A DNA stretch of 57,812 bases. Source: a virus. How positions within the stretch are numbered: the stretch's first letter is position 1; the number at the start of each line of letters is the position of its first letter. The notes under the pieces are model-generated. The model was not told where the DNA came from, did no database searches, and was given only the letters and a program-made list of their open reading frames with translations. Below, in pieces: positions 13,030-57,812 of the stretch. Position numbers and translations under genes: made by a program. The stretch lies in the IMG/VR virus record IMGVR_UViG_3300028964_000004, one strand, 5' to 3'.

Positions 13030-13211
13030 ATGTCAACAACTTATAGGAGCGGCAAACTCCTATGGCTTCCATTGGGAGTTATTTTTTTTGCCAAAACATA
13101 TTGTAGTAGTATTATTTAAGATATTGCGCACGAACGGTGGGGTAACAGAAATGTCCCCAAACTAAATTCCTATGAGTTTGTTGACAGCCGTGAACGTGCG
13201 CTTTTTTTGTT
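13030..13211 (+). promoter_or_regulatory. Structured 5' leader with mutually exclusive hairpins, two terminator-like elements and three TGTCAACAA boxes
   Basis: Stem A is 13043..13049 with 13057..13063. Stem B is 13055..13060 with 13075..13080, followed by T8. GCGCACG (13126..13132) pairs with CGTGCGC (13195..13201), followed by T7. TGTCAACAA occurs at 13031, inverted at 13178, and at 13213. Confidence 0.5.
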
Positions 13212-14081
13212 ATGTCAACAAACTCGATTCAAGTCCTAAAACAAACAGAATTGCTTGGACGCCAATTCACCGTTTACGGAACAGCCGAAAATCCGTTATT
13301 CCTTGCCAAAGATGTAGCAGAGTGTATAGACTATGCAAAGCGAAGTAATGGTAGTTATAACACTACTATGATGTTACAATCAGTAGATGAAGAAGAAAAG
13401 GTTGCCAACATTGTTGACACCCTCGGTGGAAATCAGCAAGTTTGGTTCTTAACCGAGGACGGTTTATATGAAGTCCTCATGCAATCCCGTAAACCGATCG
13501 CCAAACAATTCAAAAAGGGAGTAAAACAAATCCTTCACGAAGTACGAACTACTGGCGGCTACATTGCCACCCATCAAGACGACACTCCCGAGGAAATCAT
13601 GGCACGTGCCCTAACCATCGCACAAGCCACTCTTTCCAAAAGAGAGGAACGCCTAAAACAGCTCGAAGCCCAAACCGAGCAGCAGCAAGCCACCATCAAG
13701 ATTCAGACAGAGGAAATCAAGCAAGCAGCCCCGAAAGTCAGCTACTACGATAATCATTTGCAATCGGTCAACACGCTTACCTCCACACAGGTGGCTAAGC
13801 AAATCGGAATGGATGCGGAGAAGCTTCACAGGAAAATGAAAGAAATAGGTATCCTTTACAAACAGTCCGGGCAATGGATATTACATGCTCCTTATTCCAC
13901 TTGGGGATTACATTCTACCCGTACACAGACGCACACACGTTCTGACGGTTCGACAGGAACAAGTGTATATACAGTATGGACTACCAAAGGTGTGCGTTTC
14001 ATCATTGCCCTATATGAAAATGAATGGAACGTGAAGAAAGCCATCAAGCAGATAAAGAGTGAGGTGAATCCAGCCGCCTAA
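13212..14081 (+). CDS. Antirepressor: BRO-N domain plus KilAC-type C-terminal domain
   Basis: The segment FTVYGTAENPLFLAKDVAECIDY...WFLTEDGLYEVLMQSRKPIAKQFKKGVKQILHEVRTTGG is typical of BRO-N. The C-terminal half is KilAC-like. Confidence 0.75.
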   Translation: MSTNSIQVLKQTELLGRQFTVYGTAENPLFLAKDVAECIDYAKRSNGSYNTTMMLQSVDEEEKVANIVDTLGGNQQVWFLTEDGLYEVLMQSRKPIAKQFKKGVKQILHEVRTTGGYIATHQDDTPEEIMARALTIAQATLSKREERLKQLEAQTEQQQATIKIQTEEIKQAAPKVSYYDNHLQSVNTLTSTQVAKQIGMDAEKLHRKMKEIGILYKQSGQWILHAPYSTWGLHSTRTQTHTRSDGSTGTSVYTVWTTKGVRFIIALYENEWNVKKAIKQIKSEVNPAA

Positions 14082-16644: not shown

Positions 16645-18657
16645 TTACTGATTATTCCTAATTGTTCTTGCAACTACCGAAGCCAAAGCACTCAGGCAAT
16701 TAATCCCTTCATAGCTCTCTTTACCATTATAATCCATCACTGAATCCATAAAAGAAAGATATTCAGGATAATCATCATAATCACTTCTAAATTTAAATCT
16801 CTCTTTTATAAATTCTTCATTTGCAGATATTCTTTGGTCCATATTCGCATATAAGCTGGTAGCCCGCACATTATCCATCCATTCCCGCACATCTCTTGCA
16901 AATTGGAAATATGATTTATGACTTTCAAAAACAGTACTGACAGGTGCCCATTCTTTGAGTTTCTCTTCCATTAATCCGGCATCAAATCCATCTCTAAATA
17001 AAACTCCGTCGATAAAGACCTCAGTTCCATAGACTGCATGTATCATTATAAACTTACCATTGCAATCTGGCATGATATAGACTATAGAATCTCCTTCTAT
17101 TGCTATTCCTACATTATAATATTTCATATTTTCTTTCTTATGTGTATTTCTCTTCCTAGCCATTGAATATGATAAAAACTGTTCCCGGAATATATCTGTA
17201 CACACATAACGGAAACAGTCTGTTAAATGCCCAAACTCCTCGTAACTCTGTTTTGTTATCTTGTCCTTAATCCGAGCTTTTAATATTCCTCCATTAGTGT
17301 CTTTCTTTACATTCTCGTAATCTTGTATAGACTTCTTACATGATTCATCAATAGACACAGATATTCCATGGAAACCCTCTAATAAAGCATTCACAAACTC
17401 TCCCGACATAGCAACAGGAGGGTTCTTTTTAGGAACCATATCAACCACCCGAAAAGTTTCTTCCAACACATCTATAAATTTATCCAGAAAAGATCTCTTT
17501 TCATCATCAATAGTATTTCCGCTTCTGGTACTCGCATCTCCATGCAAATATACCACATCGTTATATCCGATTCCTTCCAGCCATGTACGTGTCAACTCGG
17601 CTGCTTTAGTTACCGTATTAAACGGATCCTCAGCACAGATTTCATAAACTTGCCTTAACTCCAATTCTTCATTTTGCCATATTGATACACTGATATATGG
17701 GAGAACATTATTATCAACAGAAATATGCAAAGGAATTCCTTCTGTTACAGGACATATCTTCTTATGCTTACCAGAATCAAATGCATGCAAAAACTCTCCA
17801 CCTGTCTTTATTTTACCCCATTCCCCAAGCGCATATATACGATAGTAATTATAATCTCTTGTCCTATCCTTATCAAAATCAGCAACCGCCTGCCGGTCAT
17901 AAAATCCATATTGCCCGTCTGGACTGCCAACTACCCAAAAATTATTGAGGTAAGTTGATTGCATTATAACTGTATCCGGAGCATGAACTTCCTCAATTCC
18001 CGTTCTAGGATTTCTCAAAAGCCTTTCTGTATTTTTCCATTTTCTAGCAATCATTGAGAATTCTTTAGGAAGAATCTTCTTTGTTTCATTGTCTCTCAAT
18101 ATACCATACAAGTCATTTGATATTTCTACCAACTTCTCCCTGTCAAACACATTCTTTTTAATCCAACACTCCTCCTCTATTGGATTAAACATTGAAATAA
18201 TCTTCTGCCCTTTCCTTCCTCTAAGACGTTTCTTGATCTGTTTGAAATCCTCCTCTTTAAACTCTGACAACTCTTCACAAACAACATACTTATAGCTTTC
18301 CAGACCTTTAATCTTCTCAGAGTCATCCAATCCTTTAAATGTAATATAAGAACCATTAAAACAAACTACTTTATTCTCTTTAAAAGCGAATAATCTATGT
18401 AGCCCCAATACCCTGACTGCCTCCTGGAAGGTTTTATAAATACTATCAGCAATAGAAGAACCTACTTTTCTAAATACAAGCGTATTATTACCCCCTGAAA
18501 GACATTCTATCAACATAGCCTGAGCTACAGAAAAAGACTTTGCCGATGAAGAACCTCCATAGAGGAAGATAAACCTTATATCATCATCTTTCATAGCTTC
18601 CCTAAGATGATGAAAATTTGGATTAAACTTTCTATAACTAATAGATACCTTTTCCAT
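16645..18657 (-). CDS. terL: Terminase large subunit (PBSX/Terminase_3-like) with a C-terminal extension of about 170 aa
   Basis: Walker A FLYGGSSSAKS, Walker B YVVCEE, and SMFNP. Nuclease-type acidic motifs ISVDNN, LHGDAS and GHLTDCF are present. 670 aa in total. Confidence 0.85.
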   Translation of the reverse strand: MEKVSISYRKFNPNFHHLREAMKDDDIRFIFLYGGSSSAKSFSVAQAMLIECLSGGNNTLVFRKVGSSIADSIYKTFQEAVRVLGLHRLFAFKENKVVCFNGSYITFKGLDDSEKIKGLESYKYVVCEELSEFKEEDFKQIKKRLRGRKGQKIISMFNPIEEECWIKKNVFDREKLVEISNDLYGILRDNETKKILPKEFSMIARKWKNTERLLRNPRTGIEEVHAPDTVIMQSTYLNNFWVVGSPDGQYGFYDRQAVADFDKDRTRDYNYYRIYALGEWGKIKTGGEFLHAFDSGKHKKICPVTEGIPLHISVDNNVLPYISVSIWQNEELELRQVYEICAEDPFNTVTKAAELTRTWLEGIGYNDVVYLHGDASTRSGNTIDDEKRSFLDKFIDVLEETFRVVDMVPKKNPPVAMSGEFVNALLEGFHGISVSIDESCKKSIQDYENVKKDTNGGILKARIKDKITKQSYEEFGHLTDCFRYVCTDIFREQFLSYSMARKRNTHKKENMKYYNVGIAIEGDSIVYIMPDCNGKFIMIHAVYGTEVFIDGVLFRDGFDAGLMEEKLKEWAPVSTVFESHKSYFQFARDVREWMDNVRATSLYANMDQRISANEEFIKERFKFRSDYDDYPEYLSFMDSVMDYNGKESYEGINCLSALASVVARTIRNNQ

Positions 18658-22904: not shown

Positions 22905-23858
22905 TTATCTGAATATTCCTTTTAAGCCTCCATTAACAGCACCTCTTTTGGCTTCATCCGATGGATGTACATATACATCAAGGGTTGTACTTATATCCGA
23001 ATGTCCAAGAATTGTAGAGACTGTTTTAACATCAACTTTATTTTCGATCAGGGTACTTGCGAAAGTGTGGCGCAACCCATGAAATTTAATGCAATGATCC
23101 AACTTCACTTTTTCAAGGATGAATATTCGATAATATGTACGTAAAGTTCGAGGCTCAACAAACCCCTCAGAGCAGGAACAGACATAATACTCGGGCTTGC
23201 ATACGGCTGAGAACTTCTTCACAATAGGGAAAATGTCCTTAAGAATAGGTATGTATCTATCTGATGAATTAGTTTTAGGAGATCCTATCTCTACCACTGT
23301 CTTTTTCTTGTCGGTACCGATATTTTCAGGGAGATATATGCGTTCTATCGTTTTATTAACGTGAATTACCTTGCCAACAAGATCTACATCCTGCCATTGT
23401 AATGCACAAACTTCTCCTATCCGCATACCGGTGCATATAGTCAATAAAATGCCTAAATTGCGAGGGGATGGATTATCCATAACATAACTCACTATTTTAC
23501 GGTATTCTTCAGGCGTGTAGCGCTCTAATTTGGGCGTGACAACTTTATTCTTGGTTGGCCAAATAACCTTCCAGGTGGTGTCGGGAACATCGATATCCAA
23601 TTCGTCACCGGCGAAGCGAATAAGCATCTTTATGACGATTAGAATATCCGAACAGTATTTCTTTGATTTGGTCCCAGAATCAAGAAGCTCATAGAGAAAT
23701 GCTGTAACAACCTTTTTTCCCATGTTCTCTACGTCTGTATTACCAAACCGGGGAGCAAGTATATTCAAATATATAAGCTGATAACAGCTTAGCGTTGAGC
23801 CCTTAACTTGCCTTCTTTTAACAGGAAGCCACTCATTATATACGTCATTTAATTTCAT
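22905..23858 (-). CDS. Tyrosine recombinase (second integrase-family gene, 317 aa)
   Basis: Catalytic boxes GMRIGEVCALQWQDVDL, HGLRHTFAS and LGHSDISTTLDVYVH. Confidence 0.85.
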   Translation of the reverse strand: MKLNDVYNEWLPVKRRQVKGSTLSCYQLIYLNILAPRFGNTDVENMGKKVVTAFLYELLDSGTKSKKYCSDILIVIKMLIRFAGDELDIDVPDTTWKVIWPTKNKVVTPKLERYTPEEYRKIVSYVMDNPSPRNLGILLTICTGMRIGEVCALQWQDVDLVGKVIHVNKTIERIYLPENIGTDKKKTVVEIGSPKTNSSDRYIPILKDIFPIVKKFSAVCKPEYYVCSCSEGFVEPRTLRTYYRIFILEKVKLDHCIKFHGLRHTFASTLIENKVDVKTVSTILGHSDISTTLDVYVHPSDEAKRGAVNGGLKGIFR

Positions 23859-26736: not shown

Positions 26737-27425
26737 GAGGACATTAGCATTTTTCTGGCTTTTTCATCTCCGGATTCCGCCCGGCGTTTCAACTCTTGAT
26801 ATTCAGCATAAGAGATCCTGTTATTCCCACGTTCTTCTATCTCTTTCTCACGCTGCATTCTGTATTCTTCCCTTTCTTTACGCTCAATATCCTTTCTTCG
26901 TTCGGATATGTAGTCTAACATCGCACTTGTTATTTTCATGGGGTCTATTGCTCCGTAAAATCTTCCATACTTGCCAGCCTTGAATCGTGCAATAAAAAAG
27001 CAAATCTCAGCGGTATTGATGTAGTAATACTCCGAAAGAAATATCTCCGATAGTTCAGAGAGTTGTTCTTTTGCTATCTTAGTCGATACCTCCGCAAAGT
27101 CGTTCAGTGAACCAAACTGTATCTTTAGCCATTCTATCGGGGTTTCATCTCCGTAAGTGGAAGACAATAACCCTAAGCTTGGAATACTGTCATTCAATGC
27201 CAGTTCTGAATGAGTTGCATTACATCTGACAAGTTTGAATTGCAAATCAGGGTTGTAATCAAGAATAAATTGTGCAGGATCAGGATATTTATTCAATAAC
27301 GCCTTCTGCTTCAAGTTCCTTTCTCTTTTTTGCGGCAGCTTCTCTGACGGTTGTAGCGACTGCAAGAACTGAATCACGTTTTCGCTGCTCGCTATCCTGT
27401 TGATTTTTACTAAGTCTTGTCCCAT
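26733..27425 (-). CDS. Hypothetical replication-module protein, 230 aa
   Basis: ORF track. The only in-frame ATG gives a 137-nt overlap with the upstream gene. Confidence 0.6.
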   Translation of the reverse strand: MGQDLVKINRIASSENVIQFLQSLQPSEKLPQKRERNLKQKALLNKYPDPAQFILDYNPDLQFKLVRCNATHSELALNDSIPSLGLLSSTYGDETPIEWLKIQFGSLNDFAEVSTKIAKEQLSELSEIFLSEYYYINTAEICFFIARFKAGKYGRFYGAIDPMKITSAMLDYISERRKDIERKEREEYRMQREKEIEERGNNRISYAEYQELKRRAESGDEKARKMLMSS

Positions 27426-28071
27426 TATAGTTTCCTTCCAATATTTTTATGAAATTTGTCGGTTTAAATATCCAATCAAAATCACATCTCCAATTTTGGT
27501 TATTGCGTCCTAGAAGAAATGCAGACTGGGCCACGTTGTTGAAAACATCAATAATGGATGTTTTCCCGTGTTCGGAAGCCCTTGCTTTTACAGATTTCTT
27601 CCTCTTATCCGTCATAGATGATATTCTAGGGAGTTTGTTTTCAAACATCCTATTGAATGTATTCATAAGAGCATTATAATCTATCGTTTCATGATGCTCG
27701 TCTGAATGTGCTACATCCCCTTGGGGGATTATAGGGGGGATATATTCATTTACATTCTTATTCTTATTATCATTATAATTAGGTTTTGGCTTGGTTTCTT
27801 CTTGGTTATCGTTTGGTTTTGGCTTGGTTTCTTCTTGGTTATCGTTTTTTGGTCTTCCACCCTTACATCCATTGTCAAAACGTTTGTTATTGACATCAAT
27901 TTGAGGTTTTATCAAAGTGAAGATACTACGAGCGACCGGCTTTAGATTCTCAGCTTCATTACCATATAGGCTATACTCCATTATAGCCGTGTAAATCTCA
28001 CCCTGAATATCTCTCGGCAGATCCTTTATTGCTTCATAGAAACTTCTATAAAAAATAAAACTATCTCTCAT
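27289..28071 (-). CDS. Replisome organizer / replication initiator-like protein
   Basis: The N-terminus is MRDSFIFYRSFYEAIKDLPRDIQGEIYTAIMEYSLYG. The C-terminus ...NQNWRCDFDWIFKPTNFIKILEGNY resembles the conserved phage C-terminus (Phg_2220_C-like). There is an internal 11-aa tandem duplication. Confidence 0.6.
   Translation of the reverse strand: MRDSFIFYRSFYEAIKDLPRDIQGEIYTAIMEYSLYGNEAENLKPVARSIFTLIKPQIDVNNKRFDNGCKGGRPKNDNQEETKPKPNDNQEETKPKPNYNDNKNKNVNEYIPPIIPQGDVAHSDEHHETIDYNALMNTFNRMFENKLPRISSMTDKRKKSVKARASEHGKTSIIDVFNNVAQSAFLLGRNNQNWRCDFDWIFKPTNFIKILEGNYNGTRLSKNQQDSEQRKRDSVLAVATTVREAAAKKRKELEAEGVIE
27782..27847. repeat. Perfect 33-bp tandem direct repeat (2 copies) inside the replisome organizer gene
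   Basis: ggttttggcttggtttcttcttggttatcgttt occurs at 27782..27814 and again at 27815..27847. Confidence 0.9.
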
Positions 28072-30375: not shown

Positions 30376-30984
30376 TTACTTATTTATAAACTCCAAAGGA
30401 TAAATAAACGCTCTTCCTTCTATTTCACATAAGAGAAGTTCCCTGATAACCCTTGGATCAATTCTGTTAACTTCAACCAGTTTAGCTCTTTTACCCTTTA
30501 GCCATATTCCATATAACTTCCTTACTGTTATATAAGGATTTTGAAGTTCAAACAAGAAAGCATATATCGAAAGTTGCCAACTCAGATATTTTAAGTCCAA
30601 TTCAGAAGTAGTTTTAATATCTCCAAGATCTACTTTATTTTTACCTGATTTAAAGACCTTATCTATTGGGCTAGCAAAATATTCATTATCTGTCACAATA
30701 TACTCACACTCGGCAATGTTAAGATCATAAAACTCTTTTAGTTTAAGATAAGATTTCCCTTCTTCTGTTTTAGGTTCTACTCCTTTATCAGCAAGTTCAC
30801 AATCCCGGTGTATATATTTTCCTATCTCCGCGGCTCTTTGTAGTATATATTCCGGTATATTTTTGTATTTTCCTGCAAATATATGCTTTGATAAAATCCT
30901 AGTTATACCGCTCAACTCTTTCCCTTTAAGAAAATATTTATGATATTCTTCATCAAACTTGACTTCCGACTTTCTTAATTTCAT
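30376..30984 (-). CDS. PD-(D/E)XK (RecB/Cas4-like) nuclease
   Basis: Contains GKYIHRDCE..., ASPIDKV... and VDLGDIKTTSEL...YLSWQLSIYAFL. Confidence 0.6.
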   Translation of the reverse strand: MKLRKSEVKFDEEYHKYFLKGKELSGITRILSKHIFAGKYKNIPEYILQRAAEIGKYIHRDCELADKGVEPKTEEGKSYLKLKEFYDLNIAECEYIVTDNEYFASPIDKVFKSGKNKVDLGDIKTTSELDLKYLSWQLSIYAFLFELQNPYITVRKLYGIWLKGKRAKLVEVNRIDPRVIRELLLCEIEGRAFIYPLEFINK

Positions 30985-31873: not shown

Positions 31874-32248
31874 TCAAAAAGGAAGATCATCTTTTTCATC
31901 AGTACTTTCCATTGGAGCATCTACAATTGCAGCACTGTTATTGCTATCAAATACAAACGGTTTCATATCTCCTAAAAATGGCTTCTTATCCAGAACGTCC
32001 TTACTGGTAGATTCTCGAAACTCCGTTGAAAATGATTGCTTCACATAATGTGTCTTTCCATATCGACTTACTTCCCTACGCTCAAATATTGATAACCTAA
32101 GATAAGCTGCTTTAGCTTTTAGATCTTCATTCATATTGATATAAATATCATTTTCTTGGATAGGGATAACTAAACATTTTTTCCCTTTAATAGTTGCAAT
32201 ACCTGCCAGTTCTAATTTAAGCAGGTCAATACTTCCTTGTAAATTCAT
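31874..32248 (-). CDS. Single-stranded DNA-binding protein (phage type) with an acidic C-terminal tip
   Basis: The C-terminus ...STDEKDDLPF resembles the SSB DDD(I/L)PF tail. It sits in the replication module. Confidence 0.55.
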   Translation of the reverse strand: MNLQGSIDLLKLELAGIATIKGKKCLVIPIQENDIYINMNEDLKAKAAYLRLSIFERREVSRYGKTHYVKQSFSTEFRESTSKDVLDKKPFLGDMKPFVFDSNNSAAIVDAPMESTDEKDDLPF

Positions 32249-32260
32249 AATTGTATAATT

Positions 32261-32578
32261 TTAAGCGAAATAATATATTTTGTTATTACCAGTACCAAGT
32301 TTTTTAACCCGTACTGTAGCTATAAATGGAAAATCTTCTTTGGAAATTTTACTAAGTGCCTCTTTTATCGGAGAAGAGTTAGTAAAGAATTTATATTCAG
32401 CTCCTTCATGCTTAATCTTGACTACGCAACGATTATCTCCATGTTGAGTTTTAACTCCAGATTCATAGTCAATTACCTCTATCTCACAGTTGAGTATATC
32501 GGTTATTGATATTTGCTGTACAGGGAAAATATTACGTCCCGCGTCAATGTCAATTCCAAAATCAGAAAACCTTTTCAT
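32261..32578 (-). CDS. Hypothetical beta-rich protein, 105 aa, overlapping the RT gene 3' end by 17 nt
   Basis: ORF track. It is not Avd-like, since it lacks a basic four-helix pattern. Confidence 0.6.
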   Translation of the reverse strand: MKRFSDFGIDIDAGRNIFPVQQISITDILNCEIEVIDYESGVKTQHGDNRCVVKIKHEGAEYKFFTNSSPIKEALSKISKEDFPFIATVRVKKLGTGNNKIYYFA

Positions 32579-33548
32579 TTTTGATTATAGTTTTAATTAA
32601 ATGCTTTGAATTACAATGTTTTGCCCATCCCATCCATGAACAAAGTGCTATCTTACAGTCGCAGGATGTAGTTTTCTTTTTGTTCAACACTGCTACTTTT
32701 CTACAGAAGTTTTTCTTGATACTTTTCCGCATTAAAATATGAGTGTGAAAGAAAACATAGCCAACAAAGTCAATTCCTCTATTATCAACCGGGAATATTT
32801 GATAATTGTCTTTCAAATCTAAATGAAGCTTATTATTCAGATATGTTTTTATATCTCCAAACAGGGAATGAAGTTTTTCTTTGTTTGATGAAAGTATTAC
32901 CAAATCATCAGCATATCTATAATAATACTTTATACGCCTTTCCTCTTTAAGCCAATGATCAAAGTAAGATAGATACAAGTTTGCAAAGAACTGCGAAAGA
33001 TAATTACCAATAGGTATTCCCGGAGCAGAATCAATAATACCGTCGAGTAACTCAAGAAGACGTTTGTCTTTAATCTTCTTTCGAACAATATTCTTAAGTA
33101 TCAAATGATCTATTGACGAATAGTATTTACGAATGTCCATTTTCAGGCAATATTTTGTATTTTGGATATCTTTCAAATCTTTCTTTAGATGTTTCATTAC
33201 TCCATGGATACCTCTGCCCTTAATACACGAATAAGTATGTGAAATAAATATTGGAGTCCATATATCTTCGAGGATATTCATTATCGCATGATGAACAACG
33301 CGATCACGGAAAGGGAGCCGGTATATTTCACGTTCCTTAGGATCATGTATGATAAAAGTTTGATACTCAGAAGTAACGTATTTATCTTCTGACAGTTCCT
33401 TATGAAGAGCATTTATGTTGTCATCCAATTCTTTCTCAAACTGAATGACCCCATAAGTATTCCCTTTGCCTTTTCTCGCTTTGGAATATGCTAGATAAAG
33501 ATTATCTAGACTACATATACGTGAATATAAATTCCCAAATCGTTTCAT
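32562..33548 (-). CDS. DGR-type reverse transcriptase
   Basis: Contains YRYADDLVILS (YxDD) and IGNYLSQFFANLYL (a DGR-RT signature). It is 328 aa and lies 108 nt downstream of the TR. Confidence 0.9.
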   Translation of the reverse strand: MKRFGNLYSRICSLDNLYLAYSKARKGKGNTYGVIQFEKELDDNINALHKELSEDKYVTSEYQTFIIHDPKEREIYRLPFRDRVVHHAIMNILEDIWTPIFISHTYSCIKGRGIHGVMKHLKKDLKDIQNTKYCLKMDIRKYYSSIDHLILKNIVRKKIKDKRLLELLDGIIDSAPGIPIGNYLSQFFANLYLSYFDHWLKEERRIKYYYRYADDLVILSSNKEKLHSLFGDIKTYLNNKLHLDLKDNYQIFPVDNRGIDFVGYVFFHTHILMRKSIKKNFCRKVAVLNKKKTTSCDCKIALCSWMGWAKHCNSKHLIKTIIKNEKVF

Positions 33549-33656
33549 AAGCCTTTGTTTCTAATAAGAGTCTTCGGATAAGCCCTACCAACACCGTTTG
33601 AATTGTTATTTTCCACCAAGAGGTGAGGTCCCTGCCCATTGGATTATTGTAACATA

Positions 33657-33724
33657 GGTGAGACCTGCTACCTGCATTCGCATTATCGTAATTCGAATCG
33701 TTGAAAGCGAAAGAGGAAGGAGAC
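33657..33724 (-). repeat. DGR template repeat (TR), 68 nt
   Basis: It aligns without gaps to both VRs, and every mismatch is at a TR adenine (coding strand). It reads SPSSFAFNDSNYDNANAGSRSHL in the VR frame and is AAY-codon rich. Confidence 0.9.
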
Positions 33725-33745
33725 AAGGGCAGGCAACCTTTAATC

Positions 33746-34120
33746 CTATGCTATCTGGATATCTTTCCAAATATCAATAAATTGCTTTGCTGCATATTCT
33801 GCAAGCTCGCATGTCCGAAATTTAAGGCGAGACCCGCTACCCGCATGCGCATAAGCGTAATCCGAAGCGTCGAAAGCGAAAGAGGAAGGAGACATTTCAA
33901 ACCAAGGATAATACTTATATTCATTATGATTATCCCAATCAGGAATCCATTCCTCGTTAAGGGCTTCTGCAATTACAATCATCTTATACTGTGCCTCAAA
34001 ATGTTTACGCATGTCAGTGGGAAGATTGGAAAAGTCAGGAACATCCGGTCTACCGGTCAACTTACGGGCATCATCAAAAGTTTTGACTAAATCTGTAATC
34101 TTTTTATTTTCTTTTTTCAT
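33746..34120 (-). CDS. DGR target protein 1, 124 aa (VR covers residues 77-99)
   Basis: ORF track. It contains VR1 and is a paralog of target 2, sharing (ALNE.W.PD...Y.(Y/W)YPWF...SPSSFAF...AGSGSRL...EL.EY..KQFID.WK). Confidence 0.85.
   Translation of the reverse strand: MKKENKKITDLVKTFDDARKLTGRPDVPDFSNLPTDMRKHFEAQYKMIVIAEALNEEWIPDWDNHNEYKYYPWFEMSPSSFAFDASDYAYAHAGSGSRLKFRTCELAEYAAKQFIDIWKDIQIA
33826..33893 (-). repeat. DGR variable repeat VR1
   Basis: 9 mismatches to the TR, all at TR adenines (TR positions 33659, 33666, 33673, 33678, 33684, 33686, 33693, 33698, 33702). Confidence 0.9.
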
Positions 34121-34136
34121 GATAATAAATATTTAA

Positions 34137-34607
34137 TTAAAGAATGAACTGTTTCCAAAGGTCAATGAATTGTTTACCACAGTATTCTGACAATTCTTTA
34201 TTTTTCAAACAAAGGCGAGACCCGCTACCCGCAAACGCATTAACGCAACCCGAATCGCGGAAAGCGAAAGAGGAAGGAGACCCATTAGTGACGAACCATG
34301 GGTACCATCTATAAACCCTATCATCACATACATCCGGTACCCAACCTTCGTTAAGGGCCTTGACAATGGTTGCCAACTTTTGATAAGCAATATCATGTTT
34401 AGTAAGACCGAGTTCCATCAACTTATTTTCATCAAGAGGACTGGTACTTAATTCGTGACATGCATCTTCATAGGTTTTAACTCTATCTGTTATCTTTTGA
34501 GAGAAAAAATCTTTTCCAAAAGACTCTTCCAGAATAGATTTTAACTCGCAGTAACCACTTCTGTAGAGTTCTCTAGCTTTTTGTTCACTGATTTGTAAAG
34601 TTTTCAT
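34137..34607 (-). CDS. DGR target protein 2, 156 aa (VR covers residues 110-132)
   Basis: ORF track. It contains VR2. Confidence 0.85.
   Translation of the reverse strand: MKTLQISEQKARELYRSGYCELKSILEESFGKDFFSQKITDRVKTYEDACHELSTSPLDENKLMELGLTKHDIAYQKLATIVKALNEGWVPDVCDDRVYRWYPWFVTNGSPSSFAFRDSGCVNAFAGSGSRLCLKNKELSEYCGKQFIDLWKQFIL
34214..34281 (-). repeat. DGR variable repeat VR2
   Basis: 11 mismatches to the TR, all at TR adenines. Confidence 0.9.
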
Positions 34608-34637: not shown

Positions 34638-34937
34638 CTATACATTAATATACTTATTCATTTGTATTGCAGATAAAGCCTGCTTTATTTCCGCTTTCGA
34701 ATAATAGATAGGAGAATTCCGGCCGGAACCTTTTCGTTTACCCTTGATCAACCCAACATCCTCCATTTGCCGTATAAGCTCGGTATCCAAATTCATATTG
34801 GCAAACCATCTGACCACTTCTCTCCTACTGATGCTATCTTTTGTCGGTTCATAGCATTTCACCGCATTCATATACCCTACTTGCACCATATCAGATATTA
34901 TATTCTTCAATTGGTATAAATCCAGCGTCACTTTCAT
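34638..34937 (-). CDS. Hypothetical protein, 99 aa, possibly DNA-binding
   Basis: ORF track. Basic C-terminal half. No firm motif. Confidence 0.6.
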   Translation of the reverse strand: MKVTLDLYQLKNIISDMVQVGYMNAVKCYEPTKDSISRREVVRWFANMNLDTELIRQMEDVGLIKGKRKGSGRNSPIYYSKAEIKQALSAIQMNKYINV

Positions 34938-35053: not shown

Positions 35054-35119
35054 TGGACGGTACAGGATTCGAACCTGTCTTTCTGATATGCAGCGTTTCA
35101 CCTAGAATACTTACCGCCC
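35054..35119 (-). tRNA. tRNA-like element 1 (66 nt): canonical acceptor stem and T arm, no canonical anticodon arm, G3:U70 and A73
   Basis: Minus strand: GGGCGGT AAGTATTCTAGGTGAAACGCTGCATATCAGAAAG ACAGG TTCGAAT CCTGT ACCGTCC A. An exhaustive hand scan found no 5-bp stem with a 7-nt loop. Confidence 0.45.
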
Positions 35120-35697: not shown

Positions 35698-35780
35698 TGG
35701 ACGGTAAAGGAGTCGAACCCTTCTCACTCGTTTTGAATTGGTTGCGCAACACGAAGCTCTAACCGATAAGCTAACCGCCC
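35698..35780 (-). tRNA. tRNA-like element 2 (83 nt): acceptor, D and T arms are canonical; the anticodon stem closes a 17-nt loop containing a UGC triplet; G3:U70 and A73
   Basis: Minus strand: GGGCGGT TA GCTT ATCGGTTA GAGC T TCGTG TTGCGCAACCAATTCAA AACGA GTGAG AAGGG TTCGACT CCTTT ACCGTCC A. Confidence 0.5.
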
Positions 35781-36230
35781 ATACTTTATTATCTGTTTCC
35801 TTCAACGCAACAATACGTTTCTTCGCCCGAATTTTACAGGAAGGAAATCCGCCTACTGACGCGAGGCGATCTCGTATATCTTGTTAAGCGTGTGTAGCCG
35901 CCCCCAACACTACATACTTTATACCGATTCATATAGGACTGTATCGGACGCTTTACATTAGTTCATAAATCTGTGCTGATTATTATTTTTCATCGTGAAA
36001 GGCTTCCCATTACCTACAAGCAGCGCATTATGCTCACGATTATCATGCCGGGTATTCCATCGGACTGTTTCCCCTCGGGCAGTTGCATGATTGCCCCATT
36101 GTACGGTACCGTGCATCTTCACACGGAGATGTCCAACATGTCTGCATCCGGAATGTAGAGTTCCGCTCACTAAAAAAGGAGAAGCTGTAAACTGATGCAA
36201 GAGCGCTATCAAAATCTACCAAGTTCCTTT
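35781..36230 (-). ncRNA. Candidate structured non-coding region (GC-elevated, no convincing ORF)
   Basis: Hand counts of five 60-nt lines give 43-57% GC against clearly AT-rich flanks. Several 5-7-bp hairpins are present (35992..35998 with 36034..36040; 36077..36096; 36109..36126; 36149..36165). The only ORF (35958..36212) has an atypical His/Arg/Gly-rich composition. Confidence 0.25.
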
Positions 36231-36270
36231 AAGACTTGTCCCCCAGAATTGATTTTTCAAATTTCTTTTG

Positions 36271-36278
36271 TATATTTG
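36271..36278 (+). promoter_or_regulatory. -7 promoter box TATATTTG for the repressor gene
   Basis: Exact TAnnTTTG match 126 nt upstream of the repressor ATG. Confidence 0.45.
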
Positions 36279-36286
36279 GAAATCGG

Positions 36287-36302
36287 TACTGAGATACTGA
36301 CT
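36287..36302 (+). promoter_or_regulatory. 16-nt motif TACTGAGATACTGACT (putative operator) at the predicted transcription start
   Basis: Identical to 9848..9863. It contains the direct half-sites ACTGA-N3-ACTGA. Confidence 0.4.
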
Positions 36303-36306
36303 TTGA

Positions 36307-36340
36307 TGATGCAAAGATAAACCCATTTTGGGTTGCATCA
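36307..36340. promoter_or_regulatory. Inverted repeat TGATGCAA-N18-TTGCATCA with an inner AACCCA/TGGGTT stem (operator or leader hairpin)
   Basis: Perfect 8-bp arms at 36307..36314 and 36333..36340. Confidence 0.4.
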
Positions 36341-36403
36341 AAATTTAAAGCATAAAAAATAACCCCAAATTGATTATTTGTACAAATTCTAAATAATAAA
36401 AAT

Positions 36404-36781
36404 ATGGAAAGGGCTATAAACAAACGAATTAAAGAGATAATCAGATACTTAAATATATCTGATACCGAATTTTCGAAACGCATATCTATGCCTCAAAGTA
36501 CTATTTCTAATATATTCAATAGAGATAGTGATATTAAATATAGTATATTAGAATCAATACTAACCCAATTTGAATTTATTTCTTCAGAATGGTTATTACG
36601 AGGTGAAGGAAGTATGTTCAGATCAAATTCTAAAGTGGATAAAACAAATTATGAAAAACTACTGGAAGAATACACCCGTCAAACTGAAGAACTACTGTCT
36701 CAAAGAGACAAGGAAATTAGAGTCCTTCAATTAGAGAATGCCCGCCTCAAAGCAGAAGCAGCCACAAAAGAAGCTGTATAA
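36404..36781 (+). CDS. XRE-family HTH repressor (CI-like) with C-terminal coiled coil
   Basis: Contains INKRIKEIIRYLNISDTEFSKRISMPQSTISNIFN...WLLRGEGSMF. It is divergent from the early operon and adjacent to the integrase. Confidence 0.7.
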   Translation: MERAINKRIKEIIRYLNISDTEFSKRISMPQSTISNIFNRDSDIKYSILESILTQFEFISSEWLLRGEGSMFRSNSKVDKTNYEKLLEEYTRQTEELLSQRDKEIRVLQLENARLKAEAATKEAV

Positions 36782-37498: not shown

Positions 37499-38830
37499 TT
37501 ACGTCATTTGATTATTGAAAACATAATCGATTACCTTCCGGTTAGCTTCATTAATCATAGTGAAATCTTTCTCAATATAAATATCAGTGATTTTCATTTT
37601 GCTATCTACATGGTTTAGAGCTTCATGTACTACATACTTATCAATTTTCAAATCATTGCGTGCTATAGTTGCCCATGAATGACGGGCAGCATAAAACTCA
37701 AGATCATCTATCACTATATCTTTCCCCATTCGTTTCAGTTCCGCATTGATATCCTTCTCTATTTCCTTAAGACCTTTGTTTATAGCAGAATTAAAACAGG
37801 TGTGATTTACATACATTCTGCTAAACCGAAAAACTTTCTGCTTTGTCTTATCTTCATATTTTTCCATCAGATTTTTTATGAATGGGGTTACCTTTACATG
37901 AATCTCTGCTTTGTCATCCCTTCTTGTAGCTGTTTTTGTACGAAAGTACTTTATCATATTGTCTTTCAATTCATCACAATTATATAAATCGACAGAGTTC
38001 ATTCCTATCAAACAGAAAGATAATATAAAACAGTCCTTTGCTAAATTATACCGGCAATTCTGTTCTATGCTTTTTCTCATATTACTCCTGTATTTATATG
38101 GCAGATCTGCTATCATTTTAATTATAAAAGGTGGTATCGCCCTCTTTCTAGCCACCTCCTCCCGTGGTACTTTAAATTTAGCAAATGGGGCCCATGGGAT
38201 TCTTATCACTCCACGTTCTTCATCATTATATTTTAGTTTTGCTTGATTATATAGATGCCTAATGCAAGACGTATACTTGCATAACATGCAATTTGATGTT
38301 ACTCTCCTTCCCTTTGCAATAGCTTCTTTGTTGGCTTTCTCTTTTTTTTCTATTATAAATTTAGAAAAGTCGTTTAAGAATTTATAAGTTATCTCAGACA
38401 CACCGATTACTTCCCTTCCGGTAAATTCTATCATTGCTTTAATAGTGCATTTGTAATTAGAAGAGGTACCCTTTCTTCCTTCTGCATCCATTTTTTCAAT
38501 ATGTTCCCGGGCAAACTGTATAAAATCAATGTCTTTTTTATCCTCCTCTACTCTGGTTACAAATTCTACAACCTCTTCAATTGACATGGAATTGATAGAC
38601 AAAGATAATATATTGCATTTGGCTCGATATGAATCTATAATCTTATTAAGCTCGTCAAGGATTGATTGATTTTTTATTTTCATCCCTCTCGTCATATCTT
38701 CCTTCTTCACATAGATCGATGTTGCTATCCTTTTTATCTTTCTATTGTGAGTCACCCGTATCTTCACATTATATGTCCCATCTTGCCTCTTTCTGGAAGA
38801 GCACACCTCTATTCTGAATGTTGTTGCCAT
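37499..38830 (-). CDS. int: Tyrosine integrase, Bacteroidota type (443 aa, with N-terminal arm-binding domain)
   Basis: Contains YAARHSWATIARN and ALNHVD...ITDIYIEKD. Its size and N-terminus MATTFRIEVCSSRKRQDGTYNVKIRVTHNRK are typical of Bacteroides integrases. Confidence 0.85.
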   Translation of the reverse strand: MATTFRIEVCSSRKRQDGTYNVKIRVTHNRKIKRIATSIYVKKEDMTRGMKIKNQSILDELNKIIDSYRAKCNILSLSINSMSIEEVVEFVTRVEEDKKDIDFIQFAREHIEKMDAEGRKGTSSNYKCTIKAMIEFTGREVIGVSEITYKFLNDFSKFIIEKKEKANKEAIAKGRRVTSNCMLCKYTSCIRHLYNQAKLKYNDEERGVIRIPWAPFAKFKVPREEVARKRAIPPFIIKMIADLPYKYRSNMRKSIEQNCRYNLAKDCFILSFCLIGMNSVDLYNCDELKDNMIKYFRTKTATRRDDKAEIHVKVTPFIKNLMEKYEDKTKQKVFRFSRMYVNHTCFNSAINKGLKEIEKDINAELKRMGKDIVIDDLEFYAARHSWATIARNDLKIDKYVVHEALNHVDSKMKITDIYIEKDFTMINEANRKVIDYVFNNQMT

Positions 38831-39176: not shown

Positions 39177-39878
39177 CTAAGGATTAATAAGATTGATGAT
39201 ACCTTGCCTACCAATTCCGGTAATCTTTCTATGGTAGATAATATGGCCATTGTCAGCAACCTCTTGCTTTATATCAAACCAGCCAAGAGTAGCGTATTTA
39301 GTATATGGCACCCACGTCTGATTAACTTTGTATTGCACACCAAGTTCTTTTAAACGGTTATTAAGTTCAATTGCCGATTTAAGTCCCAATTCTTTGGCAA
39401 CTTCCGTACATGTATAGGTTTTATTTACATGAGTAAGAACAGCTACCTGTTTCTCGGCTTCAATGCGTGCAGATCGTTCTTCTTTTAACTTAGTGAGAAG
39501 CTCAATACCGAAATCCGGATTATTCAATATCTGGTCAATAACATTGTCAGTAGCATATATGCCATGCTTGCGGATAGATGGTAGCACTTCACCACAAACC
39601 CAATCTTGAAAAAGTTCTGCCTGTGATTTATCAGACCGCATAATAACTTTATAGAGATTTTGCTCACTAATGAAGGTTGCTTCTTGTGTTCTACCTAAAG
39701 AATCGATGACCTCGGTAAGAACTACCCCATCTGGTTTTAATCGCGATTTACAGTCACTCGTGTTCTTAATTTCGAGAACCCTACAAACATCTGCAAGGCA
39801 GAATAGTGGTTCTTCACTTGTTCCGGCTACTCTAACTTCACCAAACGATTCATTCTTAAAAATCTGAATGTTGTCCAT
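39177..39878 (-). CDS. Antirepressor 2: BRO-N plus KilAC-type domain
   Basis: Contains MDNIQIFKNESFGEVRVAGTSEEPLFCLADVCRVLEI...FISEQNLYKVIMRSDKSQAELFQDWVCGEVLPSIRKHG. The start is taken at the internal ATG at 39878 (the track ORF extends to 39944). Confidence 0.75.
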   Translation of the reverse strand: MDNIQIFKNESFGEVRVAGTSEEPLFCLADVCRVLEIKNTSDCKSRLKPDGVVLTEVIDSLGRTQEATFISEQNLYKVIMRSDKSQAELFQDWVCGEVLPSIRKHGIYATDNVIDQILNNPDFGIELLTKLKEERSARIEAEKQVAVLTHVNKTYTCTEVAKELGLKSAIELNNRLKELGVQYKVNQTWVPYTKYATLGWFDIKQEVADNGHIIYHRKITGIGRQGIINLINP

Positions 39879-40027
39879 AATAAAGTCTTTTCGTTCGAGG
39901 ACGTACCGCATTTCTTCATGCGGAGATAAAAAGACGAAAGCCATGCAGGGGGTTGCGACCTACACAGCTTTCTATATCTTAATCCTCTGATTAATTCTAA
40001 TTTTAATAAGTACAACCCAAAGCACTG

Positions 40028-49401: not shown

Positions 49402-52400
49402 TTAAACTCCACAATAATTTAAAATCCAGTATGTCCCATCAAAGACAAACATAAATAGGTCTGAGTTATTACCTAAAGTAGCTGACGATAATACTTTGTT
49501 TGAGTAAATACTATTTGTTCCACCATAAATAGTTACACTTCCATTCCTTCTACGAACATAGATAAATCGCCCAACCTCTGGATATCCTGGAAGGGTCACA
49601 TTTATACTACCAGAATTAGTACATACAACAAAGCAATCACTACTATCCAAAGCGATAGATGATGATATAACCCGAGTTCTAAATATTAACCCCTGAGTCA
49701 TCTTGACGATACCATTTGTAATCAACTTACTATTGATATTGACTGCTACGGTGCCTGCAAGATTTATATTTGTACCGTTCAAATCCACATAGCTATTACC
49801 TGATGTAGATATAGATGCTCCACCGTCATTACGAGTTATAGTAATCATCTGAGGTATTATAATAACCTGACCGGAAGAATTTTTCATCGTAATCACAGTA
49901 GATAGTCCATCTGAATACAATCCGTTATCTTGAATCGTAAAATACCCAATTTGAGCACCATTCGTTACCGTAATGTTTCCTGTTGTAATTCGACCAGCCG
50001 CTAAGGCATTGGTAACGATTGCGGTTGCATCTATCAAGTTCGTTCGAATCAATCCACCATTGATAATAGTTTTTCCCTGAGTAGCATACGAAGCCATTTG
50101 GTCATACGAAGAATATCCGAGTTTTGTTGCGAAATCATTCTGCAAGTTACGCATAGCGGTAGCGTCCAAGAATCCCTGCGGTCCTTGAGGTCCTTGTGGA
50201 CCAGTTGCACCCTGAGGACCCTGTGGCCCTGGAAGCCCTTGCGGACCTCTATCTCCTTGCGGACCTTTAGCACCGGTATCTCCTTTAGGCCCCTGAGATC
50301 CCTGTGGTCCCTGCGGGCCAATAGGACCAATAGATCCGGTAGCACCAGTAGCACCGGTAGGTCCAGTTGGACCTTGGGGACCCTGCGGGCCTTGTGGTCC
50401 TGTATTACCCTTGAAATTTTGCTGCTCGGATGCCGACAAGCCGGAAAAAGTAACCATGCCTGCAATACTGATATCCTGCCCGAATATATTGATAGCACCC
50501 GGCTTAATAGTGATTCCAGTTTTTAATTCATCCTTTGTAGGAGTGTCATCAATAGAGCCGGCATCGTAGACCGTGGCAAAGGCAAGGTACCAGGTGACGG
50601 GTAAACTGCCATCACCTCCTGCTAAATAAAAGAAGTTAGTTCCACTAAATGTACCACTTGAACCACATTTGACATAATACGCATATTCCTCCCAGTCACC
50701 GGTACCAACATTGTTAGTAAGCCATTTTGATGTACCACCGTTACCTATGGCATTTGAACCCCATTCAATTGCTAGACCTGCGGGAATCCATGCGATAAAC
50801 CGGGTAATAAATACAGCGTTTGCACGTGATTTAGTGTTAAAAGTAAACCCACCTAAACCCGGTTCTACAGCCCCAGACGTCGTAATTTTAATTTTATATC
50901 CGGATTGATTAGGCAAATTAATATCTGCCGCTCTTTCAACTGCAACCATACCATTACCACTATTATTGTAGCTTCCAATGCCGTTCATCCCGCTCCTAAA
51001 CTCCGGATCACGATTCAACATCTTCCCCTTACTCATAGCAAGGGCAATCAAACGTGCATTGCCCGATACCGTTGATACAAGGTTGATATCCGTCTTGGTC
51101 TGAGAGATCTCAGTGCCCTGATTGGATACAACCTGTCCGAGAGCATCAAAGTCGGTTTGGGAGACTTTGCTTTCAATTAACCCTTTCGTTACTTTTATCT
51201 CTGAGTCGGTGTAGGTCTTGGCTATTTCTGATGCAGAACTTTCTATGTCATTGGCAGAAGGACTCCACGCAGTACCTACGTCGCCCTCAACGAGATTTAT
51301 GTTTTTATACGAAATGATTAACCCCTGCCCCGTACTTGTATTGTTTCCGGTGAATCCACACAGAAACATAAGGTCATTGAGAGTTACCCCGGAAGGAAGT
51401 ACGGCGGGTATCTCTAAGGTGATGTAATATCGGGTCCATTTCGCTTCATTGGGTAAATCGATAGTCTTATCGGCTATAAGTTTAGCAGTCGAACCCTCGT
51501 AATACCGAATATTGAAAAACAATCCTGTTGTATGGAAGTAATTCCCGCCTATACTAACATCTATTCCTAAAGTATACTTTTTACCCGGTGTTATGGCTGT
51601 CTTATCTACATTCATCCATTGCTTGTAACAGTTGAATGCGCCACTACCTAAAACTGTAACCCATCCATTTGATGTAGCGTTATAATTTAGACTTACATTT
51701 GACAGATAATCAGATTGATTAAACCAATATTCACTTGAGCCATTTAATATGTTACTTGAACCAATATTCAGTTTACTCACCTCACCCTTCACAGCCAACG
51801 TAATCTGCCCGAACAAAGCCTCCATAATCGTGTCAGTCTCAATCTTAACCTTTTCCCCAACATAAGAATATGAAGCAGAGTTGATAGCGTCTATAATTAC
51901 CCTCTGCTGATCATAATAAGCCTGTTGAAGAGTCTTGAATGAAGCGCTAACCGGTATGTTCTCTGGCTCGCTCGCCGAATGTGTTTCAAGCACATGATAG
52001 TAATCGTTGAAAGCATTCCGATAAGCAACGGTATCAATGCCATACCGTGTTGCATTAGCCAGAATAGAATCTCTTTCCGCTTTCAAAGCCTCCATTTCCT
52101 GCTTTAACGCGGTCTTTTCGGTTGGTGATATGACACCATCATCCGCCCAGGTGTTCAATCTGTCCTGGGCTGCTTTCGCATCGGTTTTGGCGATGTCTAT
52201 TTCCTTGTTGGTTGACTCAAACTCCTGCTCGATGGTCTTTCCGTTGCGAAGGATGAAGATGCCTTTGAAATAACCGTTATTTGTATATACACCATTATCG
52301 TGCGGCTGCATATTATCCGGAAAATCCGGGTCAGTTATATGATCTAAATTCCCAAATACAGAGCGAGACGCTCCGGCAAATGACTTAGTCTTGACTCCAC

Positions 52401-53715
52401 CTAATATCTCAATCTTAGGCTTGCCATCCTCGGCAGCTGACATATATATCAAGCTCTGACGAAGAGGATTCTCAGTATTACCCATCTGTACAACTTCATC
52501 ACCTACTACTGGTATAATTCCTTCAAACTCAGACTTTGGAATAGTTACGAGATTACCATTTACACTCGCAACTTCGCACCAATAGTATTTACCTTTTTTA
52601 GATGATGTATCCTCCATTTTTTGAGTAACAGTAACCTTTCCGTTACCATGTCCGGAATCTAATACAATCATTATACCAAGGTTGTATATCTCTTCGGATA
52701 CATTGATGGCACGAATTACATTCTCGCCATTTGTCAAAAGCCCTCCTACAGTATCAGAACCGATTCCATCCTTTGATAAACCACTCCATACAGCCATAGC
52801 ACCATCATACAAACCAGATATTTCTAATTTGCATTCTTTAGTCGTTATAGGAGCATCTGCTACATGTCCCTCTGGATACATGTAAAGTTGAAAGCCTGAA
52901 TTTGCTGAATTATTCATGCTAAACTCAATGCTTGTGTTCGTTATCTTTACGCTATCATCTATGGCTGAACCATCATATAAATAGGCTGTAAATTTTGTAA
53001 AATCAAAAGCCGGTGACTGGATTATTCTTCTATCAAATACTTGACACCTCACTAAGTCGTGCGCCTGGAATGTTTCATCTTCATCCTCAAATTCAAGAAT
53101 CCAAGATTGCAAATCAGAAGTCTCAGTAACTGCACTGACTTTACCGTTCGCTTGGCTTATAACAAGAGCACCATTTATTGAACGTACTTTCTGTATAAGC
53201 AACTCAAATACATTCATAACTTTCCTCACATCTAGAATATCACATTCTATATGCCAGTTGCCATACTCGTCTTTATATATTTTAAAGCCTTCGCCTGTGA
53301 ATCCCGGAACAAACTTCGGAGAAGAGATGTATTCCTTCAATATAGCTGCGGCAGCGTTTAATATGCCATCCTCAGAGAGAGAAGCGGTAGGCTCTGCCTG
53401 AGATTGGTCCCAACCGGTTTCAATGCCACCACGGATGGTCAGTTTGTAAGGGGTGGTGTCGTTTTGGTCTTTCCGGAGAAAAACCTTTTTCAAAGCCTCC
53501 ATGTCAACATCCGCAGCAAGCTTAAATGCTACTACATTATCCCTGTTGGTACGTATAAATATAGCCGGATCTTCGTCTGCATTACAGATATAAAATTCTC
53601 CTTGATTAAGCCCTTCCAAATGCGACATAGAATCAGGAGAAATGACGGGAGCTTTTGCTTTCCCATTTTCAATTTCTGAACCAAACCATTGTATTTTGCT
53701 TATATTCTTTTTCAT
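49402..53715 (-). CDS. Large tail fibre / host-specificity protein, 1437 aa, with a collagen-like segment
   Basis: It is the largest ORF, lies in the distal tail module, and contains 26 uninterrupted G-X-Y triplets. Confidence 0.8.
50173..50409 (-). repeat. Collagen-like G-X-Y repeat region (26 triplets) within the tail fibre gene
   Basis: Reads [79 protein letters not shown]. It generates spurious ORFs in other frames. Confidence 0.9.
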
Positions 53716-57201: not shown

Positions 57202-57812
57202 TTAAATACGATTTGATATATTTCTTAGCTCGGCTTCTTTTGCAGCCTTCTTCTGGTATTTAGCCATCTTTTCAAACGAACGGTTTAACGACTGCATCTC
57301 ACGCTCCAACTTTCTATAATCATTATTCACATTCACAGTAATAGGCTCACCCATCCTCTCGGCATCCTTCATCAAAGCACCTATGTCTGAACGCAAGTTC
57401 ATGCTGCGATACAAAGCTAACCTGTCAAAAGGAGGCAGGAAATCACTGCGCCTCTCTATATCTACATCGGGAATAACCTTTGCCCGACGCGGCAAATCAA
57501 TCAAAGTAGGAACATTAGGAGTTATATAAGCTCCCCTGTCAGTTACAACAGCTTCATGTTTACCTCCATCTCCTACAATAGCTAACCCACCGGGATGGTT
57601 ATCTGTACCCTTAGCATATTTGGGAATAGGCTGAGCAATAATAGTCGCAAGCTGGGCAGCTCCCAATGCTCCAACCAATGCAGCCAGAACCATATTCGGG
57701 AGGGCCCTTGAAACAGCCAGTGCAGTAGCTATGATAGATTGACTGATCGCATTAGCCTTCTCCCATTTGGCCTGTTTCTGCTGGAGAGCCTCTTTCTTTT
57801 TCTCCAGTTCTT
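57202..57812 (-). CDS. Tail tape measure protein, C-terminal part (continuation of 1..3079 across the circular junction)
   Basis: The frame is open to the window end. Position 57714 corresponds to base 1, and the codon phase matches (3079 mod 3 = 1, 57693 mod 3 = 0, 57714 mod 3 = 0). The C-terminus includes a hydrophobic G/A-rich segment VLAALVGALGAAQLATIIAQPIP. Confidence 0.85.
   Translation of the reverse strand, partial: ELEKKKEALQQKQAKWEKANAISQSIIATALAVSRALPNMVLAALVGALGAAQLATIIAQPIPKYAKGTDNHPGGLAIVGDGGKHEAVVTDRGAYITPNVPTLIDLPRRAKVIPDVDIERRSDFLPPFDRLALYRSMNLRSDIGALMKDAERMGEPITVNVNNDYRKLEREMQSLNRSFEKMAKYQKKAAKEAELRNISNRI
57714..57812. repeat. Terminal direct repeat, copy 2 of 2
   Basis: Identical to 1..99. 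Confidence 0.9.

Follow-up and report, generated by a model that had tools for sequence, protein, structure and literature searches.

In the prevailing picture of phage diversity-generating retroelements (DGRs), it is a receptor-binding protein at the tail tip, with a C-type-lectin (CLec) fold, that is diversified for host switching. The DGR of the IMG/VR virus record IMGVR_UViG_3300028964_000004, a stretch of 57,812 nucleotides (nt) that we call the window, raises the question of what else such an element may diversify, as a first-pass annotation made from the sequence had proposed that it acts on two small tandem genes in the early/replication module and not on a tail fibre. The element extends over 32261–34607 on the minus strand and consists, in order, of a 156-amino-acid (aa) target, a 124-aa target, a template repeat (TR), a structured spacer, a reverse transcriptase (RT) and a small gene that we refer to as p105. 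We consider it probable that this DGR is self-contained and that it diversifies only these two proteins, tandem paralogs from phrog_11581, a family of phage proteins that are small, soluble and non-structural.

Adenine-specific variation in two tandem genes

The two targets proposed by the first-pass annotation are indeed paralogous open reading frames (ORFs) with 43–47% identity between them. Target 1, the ‘short’ form of 124 aa, lies at 33746–34120 (−) and target 2, the ‘long’ form of 156 aa, at 34137–34607 (−), and their matches to phrog_11581 have E values of 3.6e-22 and 1.7e-33, respectively. The window holds three copies of an 82-nt direct-repeat family. One of these is the TR (74 nt, ~33651–33724, −), inside the 197-nt gap that separates the target 1 stop codon from the RT start codon, and the others are the variable repeats (VRs) of the two targets: VR1 (70 nt, 33825–33894, −), which encodes residues ~76–99 of the 124 in target 1, and VR2 (74 nt, 34208–34281, −), which encodes residues ~110–133 of the 156 in target 2. 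When the repeats were read on the coding strand and compared by ungapped scoring with base-specific controls, we observed 9 mismatches between VR1 and the TR and 12 between VR2 and the TR, and all 21 of them fall at TR adenines (hypergeometric P = 8e-8 for VR1 and 8e-11 for VR2). A-permissive scoring gives 58, whereas schemes permissive for C, G or T give 26–34. The mutated codons of VR2 correspond to residues 117–125. A scan of the whole genome on both strands found no additional VR copies besides these two, which rules out the tail fibre as a target of this DGR, as the annotation had held. We also rejected as a gene a 71-aa ORF that overlaps the TR (33511–33726), which is probably not a gene but the TR read in frame and continuing into the RT start.

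The window TR contains 11 mutable adenines in 7 codons, corresponding to ~3.2e6 peptide variants per gene. To place this in a population, we assembled 80 closely related viral contigs (72–91% identity), which gave 78 distinct TR/VR pairs. Positions that are not adenine in the TR are essentially invariant across these pairs, and at the TR adenines from −43 to −12, numbered from a conserved GGTCTC, all four bases are seen in the VRs. This combination implies that the element is active in the population, and on the sequence evidence the DGR and both of its small targets are real and active. At the GC-rich 3′ end of the VR (34208–34227 in VR2), the TR adenines at −8, −1 and +6 read G in 74–78 of the 78 VRs, one of them at a silent third-codon position. 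With these three fixed differences, the GC-rich end could serve as a directional homing element similar to the initiation of mutagenic homing (IMH) site.

The RT (328 aa, 32562–33548, −) matches Pfam RVT_1 at 1e-16 and phrog_1423 at 6e-130, and its ORF is intact, with IGNYLSQ and YADD motifs in the translation. Its nearest annotated relatives are the DGR RTs of crAss-like phages, including RTs that are 55–59% identical to it and adjoin Mtd-like tail proteins, and Bordetella phage records match it as well. Judged by its motifs and nearest relatives, the enzyme is of DGR type. The p105 gene (105 aa, 32261–32578, −; isoelectric point (pI) 7.8) overlaps the RT stop codon, and its association with RTs extends well outside the window: p105 follows the RT in 33 of 36 bacterial-genome loci, its homologs adjoin the RTs of LoVEphage and Versailles, it has been gained or lost together with the RT among relatives, and in one Prevotellaceae metagenome-assembled genome the two are fused (L210:3980–5266). 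Searches with p105 against Pfam and the PDB returned no match. Among the neighbouring ORFs scanned we found no Pfam match to the accessory protein Avd, and p105 is the one small gene joined to the RT. Avd is missing from about a quarter of DGRs (PMC5758913), so an Avd-negative cassette is still compatible with the DGR class, and the co-occurrence of p105 with the RT suggests that it may be a new accessory protein that takes the place of Avd.

The spacer of ~100 nt between the TR and the RT start includes a structured segment (33567–33628, −) with a hairpin at ~33613–33628 and a helix at ~33567–33595 that encloses a variable stem-loop. In an alignment of 27 cassettes (RNAalifold and pair counts), 93.8% of the cells in these helices are paired, compared with 38–52% for slid controls. 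Compensatory changes occur in 7 of the 9 pairs, and the observed score was attained by none of 500 shuffles. The spacer RNA matched no Rfam family, and its covariation fits the spacer of a DGR RNA.

Taken with established DGR biology, these components suggest how the element could work. The TR and the structured spacer would be transcribed, and the RT would copy the TR RNA into complementary DNA (cDNA) with misincorporation opposite adenines, probably aided by the co-inherited p105 in place of Avd. The cDNA would then replace the VR of either paralog, with the GC-rich VR 3′ end setting the direction of homing in an IMH-like manner.

The target family, its predicted fold and its link to tail fibres

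Both targets are hydrophilic and mildly acidic, and neither has a signal peptide, a hydrophobic N-terminus or a transmembrane segment (maximum 19-residue Kyte-Doolittle means of 0.38 and 0.24), in agreement with what had been read from the translations by eye. The internal position of the VR, its residue ranges, the tail of about 25 residues that follows it and the motifs shared by the two proteins had likewise been described correctly; by our count, ~23–25 residues C-terminal of the VR are conserved in both. Target 1 lacks the first ~35-residue helical hairpin of target 2. The sole family match of either protein in PHROG scans is the uncharacterised phrog_11581, whose members are typically 150–160 aa long and whose relatives form 2655 clusters at 50% identity (E ≤ 1e-3). 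Within a size class of 280–305 aa we found tandem fusions of two complete phrog_11581 units (P0123, P0125, P0126 and P0130; 277–305 aa), an arrangement that fits the long and short paralogs acting as a pair.

An AlphaFold2 model of target 2, built from a 118-sequence alignment, has a mean predicted local distance difference test score (pLDDT) of 90.3 and a predicted template-modelling score of 0.85. The chain is helical as far as residue 86 and continues with a conserved loop (LNEGWxPDW...YYPWF), a beta-hairpin (100–107/114–122), a further loop and C-terminal helices (137–155). The randomised codons map to the second strand of the hairpin and the subsequent loop. The hairpin is predicted to be carried on a helical scaffold, with two C-terminal helices after it, and the loop that holds most of the variable residues is modelled with a pLDDT of ~61. 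A model of the LoVE-type homolog has a VR pLDDT below 50, too low to inform on the fold. Foldseek searches of the BFVD with the target 2 model returned uncharacterised phage proteins only.

The claim that the VR lacks a CLec signature goes too far. A canonical CLec fold was indeed detected neither by Pfam and PDB searches nor by Foldseek; on the other hand, the VR has an ending like that of tail fibres, and in three phages the family shares its TR with a tail fibre. Isolated and reference phages hold distant phrog_11581 members (~30% identity, ~135–194 aa), and the LoVEphage and Versailles homologs match the family over their full length (3.6e-47 and 1.3e-78, respectively). The LoVEphage member (QVQ57199.1), which has methyltransferase, radical-SAM, PAPS-reductase and RtcB genes as neighbours, matches a 113-nt TR located beside an RT ~15 kb away with adenine-only differences, and the other target in this phage is the C-terminus of the tail collar fibre. 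The Versailles member, located between NinB and the replisome organiser, matches its TR along 107 nt and differs from it at 14 positions, all of them adenines, and gp09 of the crAss-like phage cr56_1 does so along 65 nt with 16 differences, again all at adenines; the second target in both phages is a tail protein adjoining the RT. As a family member and a tail fibre share one TR in all three phages, the VR is of tail-fibre/CLec lineage. The window VR itself has the terminal sequence ...AGSGSRL, of a kind also seen at the end of tail-fibre VRs, with the likeness of the shorter window VR limited to this ...G-S-R-L end. Where the small proteins resemble tail proteins, they do so in the VR alone: over 38 residues at 71% identity in Versailles, and over 45 residues in a match to the C-terminus of the tail family phrog_5302. 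The tail-protein C-terminal profile matched neither Mtd nor TvpA by sequence, and the identification of the co-target as a CLec protein comes from the annotation of the cr56_1 protein as ‘similar to sulfatase, major tropism determinant’.

This shared ancestry bears on the strongest alternative, in which the targets have a reduced CLec fold, such that the scaffold is ordinary and only the size and location of the proteins are unusual. Besides the lineage of the VR, the order of helix, helix and hairpin in the model resembles part of a C-type-lectin-like domain, and Roux et al. 2021 expect uncharacterised VR domains to be CLec variants. An hhalign comparison of the family with the tail-protein C-terminus (66% probability over 67 columns) extends somewhat upstream of the VR, but the upstream part has 15% identity at low confidence and the alignment is convincing across the VR only. 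Two models searched with Foldseek against the PDB matched neither a CLec protein nor any other structure (best E 2.8, for the model with a pLDDT of 90, and 1.2), sequence searches of the PDB with the targets found no relative, and none of 118 phrog_11581 members matched any Pfam family at E ≤ 0.01, including FGE-sulfatase, DUF1566 and Mtd. Moreover, a VR at the extreme C-terminus, a trait of CLec targets, is not found in the window family: the VR is followed by ~23 residues, corresponding to two helices, in 212 of 212 VR-bearing targets among 217 surveyed in two viral sets. The Foldseek and profile results support a predicted non-CLec fold, tempered by the tail-fibre ancestry of the VR, and given the limits of Foldseek alone we regard a reduced CLec-like scaffold as a serious possibility, albeit not the one we expect.

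Genomic setting and the role of the targets

Positions 1–100 of the window are identical to 57713–57812, and these identical ends of ~100 nt indicate a circularly closed assembly, so that the window represents one complete circular genome of a phage, ~57.7 kb in length. Close protein relatives bear Bacteroides fragilis names and the host is a gut Bacteroides; a megablast search of GenBank phages with the DGR locus gave no match. Nearly all genes are on the minus strand, and the gene map derived from PHROG scans places the targets in the early/replication region, as had been proposed from the ORFs. They sit between a gene for a 99-aa basic DNA-binding-like protein (34638–34937, −; phrog_17289, pI 9.55, with a weak match to a ‘DNA binding protein’ family), which we treat as context and not as part of the DGR, and the RT, an SSB-like gene and an exonuclease gene (30376–30984). 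The SSB-like gene (31874–32248, −; 124 aa, phrog_36980) probably encodes a phage single-strand-binding protein, judging by a C-terminus (...DEKDDLPF) that resembles the acidic SSB tip. Elsewhere on the map are the replication initiator (27289–28071), the large terminase (16645–18657), an immunoglobulin (Ig)-domain protein (11513–12916), the portal (8290–9609), the major head protein (6211–7575) and a large tail-fibre gene (49402–53715).

The same cassette order, with long target, short target, TR, RT and p105, recurs in dozens of Bacteroidota phages and prophages, so that the arrangement, which the first-pass annotation had thought unusual, is a conserved one. We surveyed 76 new viral contigs from many sample types with 40–57% identity to a distant member. 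An RT directly follows the targets in 66 of the 74 evaluable loci, which usually hold one long (~156 aa) and one short (~125 aa) paralog and sometimes one or three targets. In these 66 loci, 128 of 133 target genes carry a VR that matches the local TR, with 1849 mismatches at TR adenines as compared with 38 elsewhere. Among species-representative bacterial genomes, phrog_11581 is almost confined to Bacteroidota (Bacteroidales, Chitinophagaceae, Sphingobacteriales, Cytophagales and Flavobacteriales) and adjoins an RT in 36 of 60 evaluable loci. The flanks of five distant cassettes contain Mu-type transposition genes, a primase, an exonuclease/FtsK-like gene, a PAPS reductase and an HNH endonuclease, and no head or tail genes were found beside them. 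In every backbone examined, comprising at least 8 unrelated ones, the neighbourhood is non-structural. Among close relatives, TR, RT and p105 are present in 42 of 76, whereas in the other 34 exactly this block is missing and both targets are kept (L016 compared with L021), which implies that the targets have a function of their own. The flanking genes are also kept in the relatives that lack the block, and the DGR engine is thus a presence/absence polymorphism.

A non-structural role for the targets is well supported by this context. We infer a role inside the cell, as hypervariable binders in phage-host or phage-phage conflict, and not one as virion receptor-binding proteins, because the targets lack a secretion signal, because their neighbours in every backbone are early, recombination, replication or DNA-modification genes, and because the cassette moves as a unit between unrelated backbones. 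Several considerations weigh against this account. Genomic position is guilt by association, and no effector domain is recognisable in the targets. The role of p105 is deduced from its co-occurrence with the RT and the IMH assignment from the fixed differences, and a search for a conserved hairpin 3′ of the VR, as in BPP-1, found nothing consistent. Lastly, the TR held in common with a tail fibre in three phages could mean that the targets bind the same cell-surface ligands and are virion-associated or released by lysis.

This last point leads to a reading in which the targets belong to the virion or act outside the cell, as receptor-binding or decoration proteins whose genes happen to lie apart from the structural module, with the DGR performing ordinary tropism switching. 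That LoVEphage, Versailles and cr56_1 diversify a family member and a tail fibre from one TR, with VRs ~70% identical, would suggest a common class of ligand, and small helix-flanked CLec-like DGR targets have been proposed as receptor-binding proteins (PMC10743442). Against this, the targets have no signal peptide and no similarity to tail proteins outside the VR, the tail fibre of the window has no VR, and the cassette moves between backbones without a tail gene while keeping its non-structural position. We therefore think this reading unlikely.

A role in conflict could also be directed differently, with the targets as prophage-encoded defence sensors that detect invading phages and bring about superinfection exclusion or abortive infection, as opposed to anti-host counter-defence. 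The phages are temperate, the targets are kept after loss of the RT, and the genes lie near the lysogeny switch, formed in the window by a repressor (36404–36781, +) and an integrase (37499–38830, −), which is a common place for exclusion genes. Yet we recognised neither an effector or toxin domain nor, although PADLOC itself was not run, an architecture of PADLOC type, and a targeted family member is also carried by cr56_1, which is probably virulent, so that we find this version doubtful as well. That the VRs are relics of an inactive DGR and their variation inherited noise, as the missing RT, TR and p105 of the 34 relatives might suggest, is highly improbable in view of the intact RT ORF with its catalytic motifs, the four bases seen at each mutable adenine between invariant flanks and non-adenine positions in the 78 TR/VR pairs, and the very large number of protein clusters near 85–90% identity.

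Some further features of the window stand apart from the DGR. Two tRNA-like genes (35054–35119 and 35698–35780, −) lie in the early region with the repressor on one side and the DGR on the other, and have near-identical acceptor stems and abnormal anticodon arms; their Rfam tRNA scores are 37 and 30 bits, and ARAGORN reports one of them with a 4-base ‘anticodon’ and misses the other. The ~600 nt from the tRNA-like gene to the repressor (35790–36400) contain no convincing ORF and may be an attachment or regulatory region. The window has two tyrosine-recombinase-like genes, the integrase that adjoins the repressor and another at 22905–23858 (−) in the gap between replication and packaging genes. 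A c4-2 antisense RNA detected by Rfam (50 bits; 13125–13204, +) lies immediately 5′ of an Ant anti-repressor gene (13212–14081, +), an arrangement that resembles P1/P7 immunity, and a further Ant gene is found at 39177–39944 (−).

Relation to known retroelements and implications

The arrangement that we favour, a self-contained DGR for two small non-structural proteins, represents a known system in a variant form that is widespread and has a partial precedent. In Quimbyvirus the DGR has a second target, a non-structural protein encoded in a defence-related island (Benler et al. 2021, PMC8008677), and from its matching gene neighbourhood LoVEphage appears to be equivalent to it. Our analysis shows QVQ57199.1 to be a remote DGR target in LoVEphage, a target that the LoVEphage paper does not mention. 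As in the window, this type involves a Bacteroides phage and a small target far from the structural module, near nuclease, methyltransferase and tRNA-ligase genes. However, its DGR sits beside the tail fibre as primary target, and the small protein is single, ~194 aa long and remote, whereas in the window the tail fibre is untargeted and the RT and TR immediately adjoin a pair of tandem paralogs. Benler et al. described their target as CLec-containing, whereas a CLec fold was not confirmed here for phrog_11581.

With the mtd-avd-TR-brt element of BPP-1, the window DGR shares adenine-specific TR-to-VR mutagenesis, a TR just 5′ of the RT, a GC-rich VR 3′ end that differs from the TR and an RT with the I/LGxxxSQ motif. 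BPP-1 has one target, the trimeric protein of its tail-fibre tip, whose VR is C-terminal and whose CLec fold has been solved, together with Avd and a repertoire of ~1e13, while the window has two small non-structural targets with internal VRs, ~3e6 variants for each gene and p105 where no Avd was found. A further parallel is found in the CLec-type targets nd4_tgt2 and nd12_tgt2 of the tentaclin study (PMC10743442), in which a small single domain is flanked by helices, the VR forms a hypermutated beta-hairpin at the surface and two different proteins draw on a single TR. These differ in that they are DUF6273 proteins of 234–294 aa with the VR at the 3′ end and are regarded as receptor-binding proteins; proteins of the window family match no Pfam domain, extend beyond the VR in a helical tail and are encoded beside non-structural genes.

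Wu et al. 2018 (PMC5758913) described a Bacteroides-restricted lineage 3A without avd, an uncharacterised small accessory gene, CH1, small targets and, in some classes (Ig1/Ig2), internal VRs. The CH1 product has 160–169 aa and a pI of 4.7, as compared with 105 aa and 7.8 for p105, and the fold predicted here is not Ig-like. According to Roux et al. 2021, the VR regions that carry an annotation are consistently CLec and most viral targets are tail proteins, and Macadangdang et al. (bioRxiv 2024.11.15.621889) report Bacteroides VRs ‘uniformly at the C-termini’, with CLec folds. In a limited literature search we found no published description of the phrog_11581 family, the tandem-paralog cassette or p105.

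More speculatively, phrog_11581 would be a DGR scaffold distinct from CLec and, with p105 replacing Avd, would constitute a portable module that makes an antibody-like repertoire of binders working inside the cell, against variable proteins of host defence or against rival phages, sometimes co-diversified with a tail fibre from one template. We put this forward as a long shot in its entirety. What the survey indicates more directly is that DGRs of Bacteroidota phages repeatedly act on one large family (>2,600 clusters at 50% identity) of small, soluble proteins encoded in the early region, which in some cases is their only target; its carriers include abundant human-gut phages such as LoVEphage and crAss-like phages. 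At ~125–160 aa, soluble and with ~3e6 variants, these targets are tractable for ligand discovery and perhaps for binder engineering, and p105 and the covarying spacer RNA offer testable handles on Avd-independent retrohoming. If the targets do act inside the cell, hypermutation in these phages would serve intracellular conflict as well as host switching, a question that has been raised since the report on Quimbyviridae.
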